Shown here: one piece after another, positions 6,017-16,644 of the stretch
How the letters are laid out: every line of letters starts with the position of its first letter
Position numbering within the stretch: the stretch's first letter is position 1
From: Pseudodesulfovibrio piezophilus C1TLV30
Lineage (GTDB): Bacteria; Desulfobacterota; Desulfovibrionia; Desulfovibrionales; Desulfovibrionaceae
Direction of reading: 5' to 3'
Assembly (NCBI RefSeq): GCF_000341895.1
Contig: NC_020409.1
Span: 1,200,001 to 1,232,000 of the forward strand
Length of the DNA stretch: 32,000 nucleotides
The notes under the pieces: generated by a model
Database searches by the model: none
Told to the model about the DNA's origin: nothing
What the model saw: only the letters and a program-made list of their open reading frames with translations
Program-made: the position numbers and the translations under genes

Positions 6017-6946
6017 TTATTCGTTGAAGGCTTCGACAATTTTTTTGAGACCACCGAAAACGGCGGTATCAAGCTTGAGGTCGAGAGGAAGCGGATATTC
6101 TCGTCCTGTATTTTCATACTTTGGTTGCCCCATTCTGTGATACTCGAGAATTTCAAATTCAACTTTATCGCCAGGTAGGCCAGAGAGGAAATCAATGATT
6201 TCGTGCACATCCTCCTCAGTATCGTTGAATCCGGGGATGATCGGTGTGCGAACCCGCACCTGAAGAGAAGGAAAATCTTCTCGAATCCGCTTCAGATTTT
6301 CAAGAGGACGTTCATTGGACATTCCGGTGTAAGCCTTATGCTTTTCCGGATTCATTGATTTGATGTCGAACATGAGGGTGTTAACAAATGGGAGTGCTTT
6401 CTTCATTTCGTCATAGTCAGTCACGCCGCACGTTTCGACTGCGGTGTCCAAATGACGATGCCGTGCCTCACGCAACAGGGCCGTGGCAAACTCGGGCTGC
6501 TGAAACGGTTCTCCGCCGGACAGAGTCAGCCCACCACCCGATCGGGCATAAAACATTTCATCCTCTTCCACGCGCTTCAGAGCGGCATCCACTGTCATCT
6601 CTTCACCGTAGGTGATCAATGCGCCCGCAGGACACGCTTCGGCACAGTCGAGGCACTGTGCGCAGAGTTCTCGATCGATGTCGATCTTACCGTCCTCACC
6701 CTCAGTAATCGCACCGATGGCGCACACTTCTGTACAGCGAACACATTTATCCAAGCCGAGGCATTTATTACGGTTATAGGCTAGTTCAGGCTTGAACGCC
6801 TGGGATTCCGGATTACTGCACCACTTACAGCGCAAAGGACACCCTTTGAGAAAGACGATGGTGCGAATACCTGGACCGTCATGGACAGAATATTTCTGGA
6901 TTGAAAAAACAGTACCGGTTGTTTTCTTGTCAATAAGGGAGCTCAT
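6017..6946 (-). CDS. islB: glycyl-radical enzyme activating enzyme (radical SAM, IslB/IseH-like)
   Basis: 309 aa. The radical-SAM CX3CX2C motif (GCPLRCKWCSNPES) follows the GRE-activase N-terminal motif VHDGPGIRT. A Cys-rich ferredoxin-like insert follows (CLGLDKCVRCTEVC, CAQCLDCAEACP). The gene lies immediately downstream of the GRE gene. Confidence 0.85.
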   Translation of the reverse strand: MSSLIDKKTTGTVFSIQKYSVHDGPGIRTIVFLKGCPLRCKWCSNPESQAFKPELAYNRNKCLGLDKCVRCTEVCAIGAITEGEDGKIDIDRELCAQCLDCAEACPAGALITYGEEMTVDAALKRVEEDEMFYARSGGGLTLSGGEPFQQPEFATALLREARHRHLDTAVETCGVTDYDEMKKALPFVNTLMFDIKSMNPEKHKAYTGMSNERPLENLKRIREDFPSLQVRVRTPIIPGFNDTEEDVHEIIDFLSGLPGDKVEFEILEYHRMGQPKYENTGREYPLPLDLKLDTAVFGGLKKIVEAFNE

Positions 6947-6983
6947 TCATTTACCTTTGCACGGTTGGAGCGGGAAAGAGAGG

Positions 6984-7014
6984 GACAGGAGCGGCTTTTA
7001 TAGCCGCCCCTGTC
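6984..7014 (-). other. intercistronic stem-loop between GRE and activase genes
   Basis: GACAGGAGCGGC-TTTTATA-GCCGCCCCTGTC forms about 11 bp with one mismatch. No U-tract follows it on the coding (minus) strand. Confidence 0.5.
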
Positions 7015-7048
7015 GGCTTCATCAAGGATTAGGAGGCCTTGCTATGCA

Positions 7049-13647: not shown

Positions 13648-13707
13648 TCAAATGGGGTTAGGTAATGGTTTTCTATTATTCTTTCAGTATTTTATCCTTT
13701 TGGGGGA

Positions 13708-14730
13708 ATGGTGTTTAACAGTACAACAATAAAGCGGGTGTTCCTGGCAACCTGTCTTTTGCTCCTGGTGACTGGGTGCAAATTCGGCAGGAACCATGAC
13801 GACGGCGTCATAAAAATTCGCCTGGCCCACCCCATGGCTCCGGGCAACAATGTGACCCTGGGCTATGAAAAATTTGCGGAACTCGTGAACAAAAAATCGG
13901 GCGGAACCATCAAGGTCGAGGTATACGGCAGCAGTATGCTGGGCAGCGACCGCGTGGCCATGGAATCCGTCCAGCGCGGTTCGCTGGAAATGGCATCCAG
14001 CTCCTCGCCCAATATGGCTAATTTTTCACCTTACTTCATGATCTTCGATCTGCCATACATCACAGACATCAAATATCAGCAGAAGATTTATAATGCTCTG
14101 GACGATGGCCCGCTAGGCTCCTTTTTCAATCGTCTCGGCGAAGAAATCAATCTCAAACCTATCATGTTCAGCGAATATGGCTACCGTAACTTCGTAACCA
14201 CTGATAAGCCCATCTCCACGGTCGATACTCTCAAAAAGCTCAAAGTGCGTGTCACTGCTTCTCCGGTCGAGATTGAGGTTGCCAACGCTCTCAGCATGAG
14301 TCCGACTCCCATCGCCTGGGGCGAAACATACACAGCCATGCAACAAGGCACTGTCGATGGAGAAGGCAACACTTTCTCCCTTTTATCTGATGCCAAGCAT
14401 GATGAAGTTATCCGCTATGCTGTCGACTCCCGACACAACTACTCCATGCACATCCTCATGGTGAACAAAGATTACTGGCACGATCTTCCTGATAACGCCA
14501 AGAAAATCATCAATGAAGCCGCTCACGAGGCTCTTATTTATCAGCGCTCCATCACAGCTTCCCTTGAAAGGAAGGTGGAACAGAAATTCCTTGATCAGGG
14601 CATCAAGGTCCATAAGCTGACGCCCGACGAACTCGCCGAGTACAAAGCCAAGACCCGTCCTGTCTGGGACCTGTTTGCCGACAGGATTCCGCCCGAACTT
14701 TTCACCATGGTCCAGGAAATCCAGCAGTAG
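13708..14730 (+). CDS. TRAP transporter substrate-binding protein (DctP family), probable lipoprotein
   Basis: 340 aa with a lipobox (LLLVTGC). DctP-family motifs are present ([31 protein letters not shown], and YGYRNF with the conserved anion-binding Arg). Confidence 0.9.
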
Positions 14731-14760
14731 GCTGGTCCCGAAAGACATAAGGAATATCTC

Positions 14761-16644
14761 ATGGAACACGTAATACCGCCGACACATACTACCGAAGAAG
14801 CGCCAAAAAAAGGGCTAATCAGCTGGATCGACGAGAATATCGAGAAGCCCTTCCTTTTTATCGGGTTACTCTCCATCATCCTGATCATCACCTTTCAAAC
14901 CTTTTACCGCTACGTCATCACACAATTCACCGATGGCGCGGGGTCCGCAGTCTGGACCGAAGAGCTTGCACGGTTCATTTTCATCTGGATCTCATATCTG
15001 GCAGCTTCCATTGCTATCAAACGCCGTGAGAATATCCGCGTCGATTTCATTTATGACAGGCTACCCAAGAGCTGGCAGCCAACGTTCTGGATCGTCAATG
15101 ACCTCTGCTATCTGGTGTTGGGCATCGTGGTTTTGGTCATGGGAACCGACCTTGTCAGCTTCCAAATCCGCTTCCCGCAGATCGCCCCGGCCCTTCAGAT
15201 CCCCTACTACATCCCCTATATGATCCTGCCTATCGGGTTTGGTCTCATGAGTATCCGGCTCGTGCAGGATATCATGAAGGAGATCAAGACTGCTGGCATC
15301 AAATCCCTCGGAGCTGCCATCGTGATCACTGCGGCCATCTTCGCCCCTGTGATCCTCGGCATTGACATCGCTACCACCACCATTCTCTTCGGCTACTTCG
15401 CCCTCTTCCTGGTAGTCGGCGTCCCCATCGGCATCAGCCTCGGCTTGGCTTCCCTGGTCACCCTGATCGGCTCCGGCACGCTGCCCATCGATTACATAGC
15501 CCAGGTTTCCTTTACTTCGATTGATTCATTCCCGATCATGGCGATCCCGTTCTTCATCGCCGCGGGTATCTTCATGGGGTCCGGAGGACTGTCCACCAGA
15601 CTACTGAATCTGGCCGACGAATTGCTCGGCCCCCTGCCCGGTGGCATGGCTCTCGCAACCATCGCTACCTGCATGTTCTTCGCGGCCATATCCGGCTCCG
15701 GCCCGGCCACTGTCGCGGCCATCGGTTCGCTGACTATCCCGGCCATGATCGAGCGTGGATATGACAAGTACTTTGCCTGCGCGATTGTTGCCGCAGCTGG
15801 TGCTATCGGGGTCATGATCCCGCCTTCCAATCCGTTCGTCATTTACGGTGTCGCCTCCCAAAGTTCCATCGGCAAACTGTTCATCGCCGGTGTCGTTCCC
15901 GGTGTACTCACCGGACTTGTTCTGATGGGCTTCAGCTATTGGTACTCAAAGAAAAAAGGATGGATGGGCGAAGCCAAAGAACGTTCCGTCACCTCCATCT
16001 CCAAGGCTTTTTGGGATGCCAAACTTGCGCTGATGGTTCCGGTCATCGTTCTCGGTGGCATCTATGGCGGCTTGATGACTCCCACCGAGGCTGCCGCCGT
16101 TGCAGCCTTCTATGGCCTGATCGTCGGTCTCTTCGTCTACAAGGGGCTCAACATGGGCAACATAGTGGACGCCTTCATGGAAGTCTGCTCAACCTCGGCC
16201 ATCGTCATCATCCTCATGGCCATGGCAACCGTGTTCGGCTACGTTATGACCGTTGAGCAGGTTCCAGCCAAGATCGCATCCTTCATCCTTGGTGTCACGG
16301 AAAGCAAGATCGTCATCCTGCTGCTCATCAACGTCCTGCTGCTCATCATCGGCACCTTCATGGAGGCTCTGGCCGCCATCGTCATTCTCGTACCGATCCT
16401 GCTTCCAATCGTGACCAAGGTCGGTGTCGATCCTGTCCACTTCGGTATCATCATGGTCGTCAACCTTGCCATTGGATTCGTGACCCCACCAGTCGGCGTC
16501 AACCTATTCGTGGCCTCAAGTGTCGCCAAAGTGAAGCTGGAGGATATCTCCAAACAGATTCTGCCGATCCTCGGATTGATGATCCTTGTCTTGCTGGCGG
16601 TCACCTACATCCCGGAAATATCGTTGATATTCGTCGGCGACTAG
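14761..16644 (+). CDS. TRAP transporter fused small/large permease (DctQ-DctM fusion)
   Basis: 627-aa polytopic ORF. The N-terminal ~190 aa are DctQ-like, followed by a ~430-aa DctM-like domain. AAGGAA lies upstream of the ATG. Confidence 0.9.
   Translation: MEHVIPPTHTTEEAPKKGLISWIDENIEKPFLFIGLLSIILIITFQTFYRYVITQFTDGAGSAVWTEELARFIFIWISYLAASIAIKRRENIRVDFIYDRLPKSWQPTFWIVNDLCYLVLGIVVLVMGTDLVSFQIRFPQIAPALQIPYYIPYMILPIGFGLMSIRLVQDIMKEIKTAGIKSLGAAIVITAAIFAPVILGIDIATTTILFGYFALFLVVGVPIGISLGLASLVTLIGSGTLPIDYIAQVSFTSIDSFPIMAIPFFIAAGIFMGSGGLSTRLLNLADELLGPLPGGMALATIATCMFFAAISGSGPATVAAIGSLTIPAMIERGYDKYFACAIVAAAGAIGVMIPPSNPFVIYGVASQSSIGKLFIAGVVPGVLTGLVLMGFSYWYSKKKGWMGEAKERSVTSISKAFWDAKLALMVPVIVLGGIYGGLMTPTEAAAVAAFYGLIVGLFVYKGLNMGNIVDAFMEVCSTSAIVIILMAMATVFGYVMTVEQVPAKIASFILGVTESKIVILLLINVLLLIIGTFMEALAAIVILVPILLPIVTKVGVDPVHFGIIMVVNLAIGFVTPPVGVNLFVASSVAKVKLEDISKQILPILGLMILVLLAVTYIPEISLIFVGD

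Follow-up and report, generated by a model that had tools for sequence, protein, structure and literature searches.

We analyzed a 32,000-nucleotide stretch of Pseudodesulfovibrio piezophilus C1TLV30 (NC_020409.1, positions 1,200,001 to 1,232,000; hereafter the window, in whose coordinates positions are given), which contains a glycyl radical enzyme (GRE) locus for organosulfonate breakdown. Our main subject is one gene of this locus, which encodes an amidohydrolase-fold protein that we call Amh, and its relationship to GREs that cleave the C-S bond of sulfonates. The span from 6017 to 16644 is filled by seven genes, and its ends coincide exactly with gene ends; all genes that an earlier note on this DNA had named are present. 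On the minus strand lie iseH/islB (6017 to 6946), encoding the GRE-activating enzyme; iseG/islA (7049 to 9544), encoding a pyruvate formate-lyase (PFL)-like GRE assigned below as isethionate sulfite-lyase; islR (9940 to 11385), encoding an activator with a PAS domain, an AAA+ sigma54 activator domain, and a Fis-type helix-turn-helix; and a tauE/safE-family anion exporter gene (11417 to 12145; Pfam TauE, 114.6 bits), whose product we infer to act in sulfite or sulfonate efflux. On the plus strand lie the gene for Amh (12289 to 13125), a 278-amino-acid Amidohydro_2-fold protein of what we call the RxR subfamily; iseP (13708 to 14730), encoding the solute-binding protein (DctP) of a transporter of the tripartite ATP-independent periplasmic (TRAP) type; and iseQM (14761 to 16644), encoding the fused TRAP membrane component (DctQM; Pfam DctQ and DctM). 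A 289-amino-acid open reading frame on the minus strand (12286 to 13155) was also considered as the amidohydrolase gene; it has no Pfam match and is a shadow of the plus-strand gene. The same gene order occurs in Pseudodesulfovibrio thermohalotolerans, and the named relatives closest to the locus belong to Pseudodesulfovibrio and Maridesulfovibrio.

The GRE was compared with solved structures and scored highest against IseG of Desulfovibrio vulgaris (PDB code 5YMR; 1382 bits), followed by IslA of Bilophila (7KQ3; 1360 bits) and by HpsG (6LON; 1186 bits), the lyase for 2,3-dihydroxypropane-1-sulfonate (DHPS). It carries the sulfonate-binding triad Arg187/Gln191/Arg676 (IseG numbering; within SSFRSSLQW and DVRYVPF), the glycyl radical loop RIAGYSAYF, and the catalytic GCxE loop, and it matches Pfam Gly_radical with 101.7 bits. 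At the positions that distinguish isethionate from DHPS lyases, the GRE has Thr-Gly-Thr310 and Phe680, as do IseG and IslA, whereas HpsG has Ala-Ser-Ala and Ile680 (the triad and specificity residues are those defined in PMC6453916 and PMC13450708). The sole exception among the specificity residues is Leu in place of Ile190, and Leu is also found in HpsG. Overall identity is 62% to HpsG versus 70 to 84% to the GREs of 79 genomic loci, many of which have an adjoining IseP-type transporter. The NCBIfam equivalog NF048011, named "(2S)-3-sulfopropanediol dehydratase" (HpsG Desulfovibrio type), scored the GRE at 1557 bits against a cutoff of 1000. The structure ranking and the specificity residues led us to reject this name, and automatic annotation through this model probably misnames isethionate lyases. 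The activase is a radical S-adenosylmethionine protein with a CX3CX2C motif (CPLRCKWC) and ferredoxin-like clusters (Pfam Radical_SAM and Fer4; TIGR02494, 350 bits; NF048010, 499 bits). These features point to an IseG/IseH-type isethionate sulfite-lyase system.

The transporter is consistent with this assignment. DctP scored 462 bits against the isethionate-specific OaIseP (PDB code 8T9T; 63.5% identity), and the next structure scored 161 bits; the membrane component scored 887 bits against PDB entry 9PYM ("Isethionate TRAP transporter permease protein DctMQ"), with the next structure at 311 bits. In OaIseP, isethionate is contacted by Arg156, Arg177, Ser95, Asn98, Tyr153, Asn217, Asp77, and His244, and the site is lined by Pro38, Met39, Leu221, and Trp200 (PMC11668362). 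All 12 of these 12 residues are identical in DctP; one latch residue of OaIseP, Asp180, is Ala. IseP orthologs bind isethionate at 0.5 to 1 µM and reject taurine and other analogues (PMC6453916, PMC11668362). Since the importer retains every isethionate-contact residue, the imported compound is predicted to be free isethionate, not a conjugate.

The earlier note had assigned a sigma54 promoter of the -24/-12 type to each transcription unit. Two of these are exact TGGCAC-N5-TTGC elements: the iseGH promoter (TGGCACACCCTTTGC; 9636 to 9650, minus strand), 92 nt upstream of the GRE start, and the isePQM promoter (TGGCACATCATTTGC; 13633 to 13647, plus strand), 61 nt upstream of dctP. Elements similar to the former were found upstream of IseG in 41 of 78 loci, and a GG-N10-GC element precedes 28 of 31 IseP-type dctP genes. 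The other two are sigma54-like: the tauE-islR element (TGGCAGGTAATTTGC; 12158 to 12172, minus strand) reads TGGCAG-N5-TTGC, with one mismatch, and the element upstream of Amh (TGGTATGGACCTTGC; 12227 to 12241, plus strand) is a degenerate TGGTAT-N5-TTGC. Degenerate matches alone do not exceed chance (46 at up to two mismatches versus 35 expected), but both elements are conserved. The tauE-islR element recurs in three Maridesulfovibrio loci, and an alignment of the intergenic region from seven related loci (48% mean column identity) has a single invariant block, TGG-N9-TTGCT upstream of Amh, which recurs 53 to 64 nt before the start codon in six relatives. The D. vulgaris ortholog of Amh, DVU2820, also has a predicted sigma54 promoter (PMC4641369). 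Thus, the claim stands as made for the GRE and dctP promoters, and for the tauE and Amh promoters it stands through conservation.

The palindrome TGCA-N4-TGCA occurs in five exact copies in the window versus 0.85 expected, all upstream of the two exact promoters. Three lie at the iseGH promoter (9761 to 9857), and two, plus a further copy with one mismatch, lie at the isePQM promoter (13345 to 13452). These are likely the binding sites of the activator IslR, as predicted from the motif scan. The 143-bp spacer between tauE and Amh (12146 to 12288) holds two back-to-back sigma54-like promoters, and the nearest palindrome is 1.1 kb off, downstream of Amh. The activator matches Pfam PAS, Sigma54_activat (229 bits), AAA_lid_14, and HTH_8, and its loop reads GAFSGA, the same variant as in DVU2827 (PMC4641369). 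Intrinsic terminators were found for the tauE-islR unit (9877 to 9914, minus strand; a hairpin of -21.1 kcal/mol, z = -2.9, followed by a U tract) and after Amh (13170 to 13206, plus strand; a 13-bp stem of -26.2 kcal/mol, z = -3.5, followed by UCUUUU). With terminators after Amh and after the activator gene, the locus is predicted to form four transcription units, with Amh monocistronic. The scan for terminator-like structures also returned a 13-bp GC-rich hairpin (6984 to 7014, minus strand) in the 102-nt spacer between iseG and iseH, possibly a partial terminator or an mRNA stabilizer that would lower the activase relative to the lyase.

Collectively, these data make it very probable that the locus is a canonical sigma54/IslR-controlled module for isethionate respiration, a level of confidence that rests on close orthology to characterized proteins. 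IsePQM would import free isethionate, IseH would place the glycyl radical on IseG, and IseG would cleave isethionate to acetaldehyde and sulfite, the latter entering dissimilatory sulfite reduction. The PAS domain of IslR is probably its substrate sensor, and the protein would activate the four sigma54 units from the TGCA-N4-TGCA sites. In Oleidesulfovibrio alaskensis G20, knockouts of islA, islB, dctP, dctMQ, and islR do not grow on isethionate (PMC6386719, Peck 2019). The locus is of known isethionate type and in itself adds nothing new.

Amh matched Pfam PF04909 (Amidohydro_2) with 117 bits against a cutoff of 26.4 and matched no NCBIfam model. Its closest structure is the uncharacterized BB4693 of Bordetella bronchiseptica (PDB code 3IRS), and the top Foldseek matches were 3IRS, 2DVT, 2GWG, and ACMSD. 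We know of no characterized Amidohydro_2 member that acts on a sulfonate. The canonical metal ligands of the fold are an HxH (or ExH) after strand 1, a His after strand 5, and an Asp after strand 8. Amh has lost three of the four: HxH is replaced by RxR (IDFRFRP) and the strand-8 Asp by Ala (ASAHPF), leaving only His189. Distant relatives in the same alignment retain ligands (HxH in P0163 and P0197; P0163 also has GTDYP). Since three of four ligands are lost, Amh is unlikely to be a metal-dependent hydrolase. About 140 positions are invariant across 17 Amh orthologs, and an invariant polar cluster at the C-terminal face of the barrel (RxR, DPHKG, IDPY, SHGGYPW, SEYE, and SAHPF) looks like a preserved active site. 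Kinship to the metallo bile-salt hydrolase or to N-acetyltaurine amidohydrolase (NaaS) was considered and rejected because these belong to different families and Amh matches only PF04909; the former is a 101-kDa Amidohydro_3 (PF07969) protein (PMC13081902). The window Amh carries neither a signal peptide nor an encapsulation tail.

To describe the gene neighborhood of Amh, we used the 79 loci with a GRE 70 to 84% identical to that of the window, 37 of which are fully flanked, with 9 kb or more on each side. Of these 37 loci, 25 have an Amh ortholog no more than 10 kb from IseG; the activase, in 36, and the activator, in 32, are the only components found more often, and TauE and an IseP-type DctP are each found in 15. 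The same association extends to more distant homologs: among 12 contexts examined for Amh homologs of 90% down to 35% identity, 11 include a GRE of the sulfonate type. Where the relevant region is available (full-length enzymes and one N-terminal fragment), these GREs keep the Arg and Gln of the triad, and the full-length enzymes also keep the second Arg. The contexts include Moorella, a Peptococcaceae isolate, and Dehalobacterium, and the partnership spans two phyla, Bacillota and Thermodesulfobacteriota. Thus, the proposal in the earlier note that the amidohydrolase-fold gene is dedicated, co-regulated, and conserved is borne out by the promoter block and by both counts, and the co-occurrence check that it suggested found the gene neither absent nor unlinked in orthologous loci.

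DHPS-lyase loci carry the Amh family too, as seen in a scan with HpsG that covered 18 loci. Two Amidohydro_2 paralogs of the RxR type lie on a contig (our L095) that encodes an HpsG with 99% identity to the Bilophila enzyme, one divergent upstream of hpsG and the other between hpsH and hpsK (8650 to 9483, minus strand, and 14368 to 15204, plus strand), and both keep all hallmark motifs. The published descriptions of the DHPS locus give hpsGHKLM with no mention of amidohydrolase paralogs, and PMC8397734 refers to a "four-gene cluster" induced by DHPS in Bilophila. Together with an amidohydrolase, possibly of the same family, listed beside islA in a cluster table (PMC8667426), the two hps-locus paralogs suggest that one genome keeps a separate Amh copy for each lyase. 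Overall, the neighborhood comparisons strongly support the view that Amh is an ancient, co-inherited partner of the whole clade of sulfonate C-S-lyase GREs, comprising IseG, HpsG, and uncharacterized relatives.

Four further observations were made in these neighborhoods. First, the GREs of contigs L116 to L119, L171 (3933 to 6395), and L172 (3774 to 6275) have the Arg/Gln/Arg triad but other specificity residues (TGT/F with Ala-Leu at 189 to 190; TGG/I; TSS/V), and are possibly lyases for other hydroxysulfonates. An Amh homolog is present on L116 to L118, L171, and L172, the last two also carrying a transporter of the major facilitator superfamily (MFS), and none was found on the 3.3-kb L119. 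Second, the only Amh-family context without a GRE (L085, 670 to 8703) combines a pair of neighboring Amidohydro_2 genes with shell genes for BMC-H and EutN and with genes of the hydantoinase A/B type, and is a different, unassigned type of microcompartment. Third, the isethionate locus of a Peptococcaceae member has a DsrE-like gene (L082, 9629 to 9976) between its activase and Amh genes. Fourth, an Amidohydro_1 gene follows Amh in one of the divergent loci (L172, 7388 to 8551).

Amh orthologs come in a short form of 276 to 282 amino acids and a long form of 300 to 315 amino acids, which adds a variable linker and a C-terminal motif. Of 16 long forms, 15 occur with microcompartment shell genes, and the contig of the remaining one breaks off ahead of the informative region; of 24 short forms, 0 occur with such genes (Fisher p = 4e-10). 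One type of tail reads D-x-V-x-x-I-V-R-x-V-M-x-x-L, and the aldehyde dehydrogenase and phosphotransacylase of the same loci end in closely similar peptides (ETIEDIVKEVLKNI, DDIASIVKQVLNKL, and NELIDIITDIVKGQL); by this resemblance, such tails are predicted to be classic encapsulation peptides. The second type is rich in Met, Pro, and Phe (MPFMPF; for example, VPMPFMPFTPPAR), is confined to those Desulfovibrionaceae loci that have shell genes (L015, L029, L038, L041, L042, L066, and L069), and may be a different targeting signal; MPFMPF was found at the C terminus of no other open reading frame of the same loci, and a signal shared with other proteins is therefore not confirmed. The tail data strongly support the idea that Amh shares a compartment with the lyase where the pathway is encapsulated. 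Since the tail is present only where shell genes are present, Amh would work beside or after the lyase. The window contains no shell genes, aldehyde dehydrogenase, or phosphotransacylase, and its organism has the unencapsulated version of the pathway.

The explanation that best accounts for these results, to which we assign a probability of roughly 0.6, is that the locus is an isethionate module in which Amh works on the product side, tentatively as a lyase for alpha-hydroxysulfonates. Amh would act in the same compartment as the GRE and on its products, not as a hydrolase of an upstream precursor. The Amh family accompanies HpsG as well as IseG, and its role is therefore more plausibly tied to what these lyases share, which is the equimolar release of sulfite and a carbonyl compound; this common feature is the basis of the chemistry proposed here. 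Acetaldehyde and bisulfite combine into 1-hydroxyethanesulfonate, a tight, slowly dissociating adduct that is an isomer of isethionate. We propose that the two products of the lyase would form such a bisulfite adduct, that the Arg pair standing in place of the metal-binding HxH of Amh would bind its sulfonate, and that a conserved His or Glu would act as a general base on its hydroxyl, so that the adduct collapses to aldehyde and sulfite. Splitting the adduct would make the aldehyde available to be oxidized and the sulfite to be reduced, and would avert inhibition by a product analogue. The specific activity, a metal-independent lyase for carbonyl-bisulfite adducts, is put forward tentatively; the lost metal site, the encapsulation, and the separate paralogs per lyase all fit it. 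Equally tentative is the broader idea that Amh represents a new enzyme class on an old fold, a metal-free adduct lyase needed in vivo by every sulfite-releasing GRE system.

Several points weigh against adduct cleavage by Amh. We found no enzyme in the literature that splits such carbonyl-bisulfite adducts. Hydroxyacetone, the product of HpsG, is a ketone and should form a weaker bisulfite adduct, which counts against this activity for the HpsG-linked copies. To our knowledge, sulfite-releasing systems of the Xsc and SuyAB types do not carry an Amh gene. The structure model of Amh is mediocre (predicted local distance difference test score [pLDDT], 71), and the fold matches permit no transfer of function. 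No TGCA-N4-TGCA site at up to one mismatch was found in the tauE-Amh spacer, which leaves the conserved promoter as the sole basis for co-regulation of Amh. Amh is also absent within 10 kb of IseG in 12 of the 37 fully flanked loci, including Halodesulfovibrio (in several of these misses, the gene lies at or just past the 10-kb edge), and from about half of the HpsG-type loci; in loci of either kind without it, Amh is dispensable or encoded elsewhere. Finally, Amh is not needed for turnover of IseG, IslA, and HpsG in vitro (PMC6453916, PMC6386719).

The main rivals to an adduct lyase are a role as a partner of the GRE and a role in sulfite handling, both of which we consider improbable, and to the same degree. 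As a partner, Amh would not be a metabolite enzyme at all and would instead stabilize the GRE, protect or repair it against sulfite or radical damage, or aid its assembly or activation. The parallel divergence of the two proteins (84, 62, and 52% identity for the GRE versus 83, 50, and 35% for Amh) suits such a role, as do the separate paralogs that one genome probably keeps for its lyases, the loss of the canonical catalytic metal site, and encapsulation with the lyase. Against it, recombinant lyases need only the activase for activity (PMC6453916, PMC6386719), and the roughly 140 invariant positions include a polar cluster that resembles a preserved active site. A review of GRE microcompartments of the choline and propanediol types also has 0 occurrences of the word amidohydrolase (PMC6325248).

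In sulfite handling, Amh would bind or buffer sulfite, pass it on (to DsrAB/DsrC or TauE, or to the outside of the microcompartment), or detoxify a different sulfite adduct, such as that of a cofactor. The reactions of IseG and HpsG have a single small molecule in common, sulfite; an Arg pair stands in place of the metal site, and Amh frequently adjoins tauE and in the Peptococcaceae locus lies beside the DsrE-like gene. This role leaves the separate paralogs per lyase unexplained, however, and the Pfam, NCBIfam, and PDB comparisons revealed no sequence relation to known sulfite-binding proteins.

The earlier note had favored a third role, in which the transporter brings in a conjugate or precursor (such as N-acetyltaurine, an acyl-isethionate, or sulfolactate) that Amh hydrolyzes or decarboxylates before C-S cleavage. 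We consider this quite unlikely. It would account for the amidohydrolase/decarboxylase fold, for the sigma54 promoter that Amh has of its own within the regulon, and for the frequent position of Amh beside transporter genes, including, in D. piger and D. desulfuricans, its cotranscription with an MFS transporter (PMC4641369). It conflicts with the isethionate-specific residues of the importer, whose orthologs bind isethionate and not taurine or analogues (PMC6453916, PMC11668362), and with the loss of three metal ligands from Amh. It also conflicts with the predicted location of Amh, which is cytoplasmic and, where shell genes are present, targeted to the microcompartment alongside the lyase. 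The same family, with its hallmarks, stands beside the DHPS lyase, whose transporter binds free S-DHPS (PMC13335735), and the window contains no aminotransferase, reductase, or other precursor-converting gene. That the locus degrades DHPS and not isethionate is highly improbable, since the NF048011 score and Leu190 are outweighed by the structure ranking, the Thr-Gly-Thr and Phe680 residues, the lower identity to HpsG, and a binding protein that retains every isethionate contact.

Returning to Amh and its proposed role on the product side, we found no function for its gene in the literature, which mentions the gene only in a regulon study of 2015 (PMC4641369) and a cluster table of 2021 (PMC8667426). 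The view in the earlier note that the known pathway leaves an extra gene unaccounted for therefore holds with respect to function, although the gene itself had been placed in the regulon and listed before. Likewise, an undescribed step is plausible, but not as conversion of an upstream precursor. As far as the searchable literature shows, what is new is the breadth and depth of the partnership between Amh and the lyases, its extension to HpsG and uncharacterized sulfonate GREs, the loss of the metal ligands, and the correlation between tails and shell genes. Cleavage of isethionate and DHPS by GREs is the route by which Bilophila and Desulfovibrio convert taurine- and plant-derived sulfonates to gut hydrogen sulfide, and these enzymes are discussed as drug targets. 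The Amh family offers a testable gene in tractable strains (DVU2820 in D. vulgaris; the gene adjoining isePQM in O. alaskensis G20). Should Amh prove necessary in vivo, the pathways as now accepted would be incomplete and there would be a second target; if it splits the adduct, one enzymatic step is missing from the isethionate and DHPS pathways that textbooks give for Bilophila and Desulfovibrio.

Elsewhere in the window, we found no taurine or sulfoacetaldehyde enzymes. The remaining genes encode a peptide ABC transporter, an arsenic-resistance set, a molybdenum aldehyde oxidoreductase, a PAS-LuxR regulator, and ablAB-like products. The aldehyde oxidoreductase is encoded by a gene pair (2Fe-2S and molybdopterin proteins; 23398 to 26022, plus strand) 7 kb downstream of the locus, and since the locus lacks an aldehyde dehydrogenase, it may serve as a sink for the acetaldehyde that IseG produces. 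The arsenic set (an ArsP-type permease, a DsbD-like protein, an ACR3-type carrier, and a low-molecular-weight-phosphatase ArsC) and a lysine-2,3-aminomutase/GNAT pair lie within 17333 to 22357 and 28315 to 30457. The latter pair is of the kind that makes N-acetyl-beta-lysine and suggests a marine or halophilic host.

Among known systems, the locus most resembles the iseGH/islAB-isePQM-islR clusters of Nitratidesulfovibrio vulgaris Hildenborough, O. alaskensis G20, and Desulfovibrio piger (PMC6453916, PMC6386719, PMC11668362), with which it shares an orthologous lyase, activase, TRAP importer, and PAS-sigma54 activator, as well as the substrate-contact residues of the lyase and binding protein. 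Relatives in those genera (L019 and L031) also have Amh adjoining the transporter genes. The gene order differs, with iseH, iseG, islR, and tauE on the minus strand of the window followed by Amh and isePQM on the plus strand; residue 190 of the lyase is Leu rather than Ile; and published descriptions of the isethionate pathway omit both Amh and TauE. The regulon predicted for DVU2827 in D. vulgaris comprises a TRAP/"PFL" operon and the amidohydrolase gene DVU2820 with its own sigma54 promoter (Kazakov 2015, PMC4641369). The likeness to the window extends to the GAFSGA activator, to sigma54 promoters before the TRAP/GRE operon, and to a separate one before the amidohydrolase gene. That study took the GRE for pyruvate formate-lyase and assigned the transporter to C4-dicarboxylates. 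The amidohydrolase and transporter genes diverge in D. vulgaris, whereas in the window they run in the same direction and the amidohydrolase gene is divergent from tauE-islR, a unit that apparently has a sigma54 promoter of its own.

The islAB cluster of Bilophila wadsworthia, which belongs to the GRMguf type of microcompartment, has the same lyase and activase as the window and ends with a "hypothetical protein, predicted amidohydrolase" (00649) beside a PduS-like gene (Burrichter 2021, PMC8667426), an arrangement that we also found in a Moorella locus (L080). By comparison, the window lacks the shell genes, aldehyde dehydrogenase, and phosphotransacylase, and its Amh lacks the C-terminal targeting tail. 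The HpsGH-HpsKLM locus of the same species (6LON; PMC8397734, PMC13335735) has a paralogous GRE with 62% identity and the same triad, a TRAP importer, and two Amh-family genes. It differs from the window in the Ala-Ser-Ala and Ile680 residues of its lyase, which stand against Thr-Gly-Thr and Phe680, in its products, hydroxyacetone and sulfite, and in its binding protein, which falls in a different cluster from the window IseP. With respect to Amh itself, BB4693 (3IRS) shares the IDFR-x-RP motif and the Ala at the strand-8 Asp. Decarboxylases, hydratases, and lactonases of the Amidohydro_2/ACMSD type share its TIM-barrel fold; in the characterized members, HxH (or ExH), His, and Asp bind a metal or are at least still present, whereas Amh keeps a single His.

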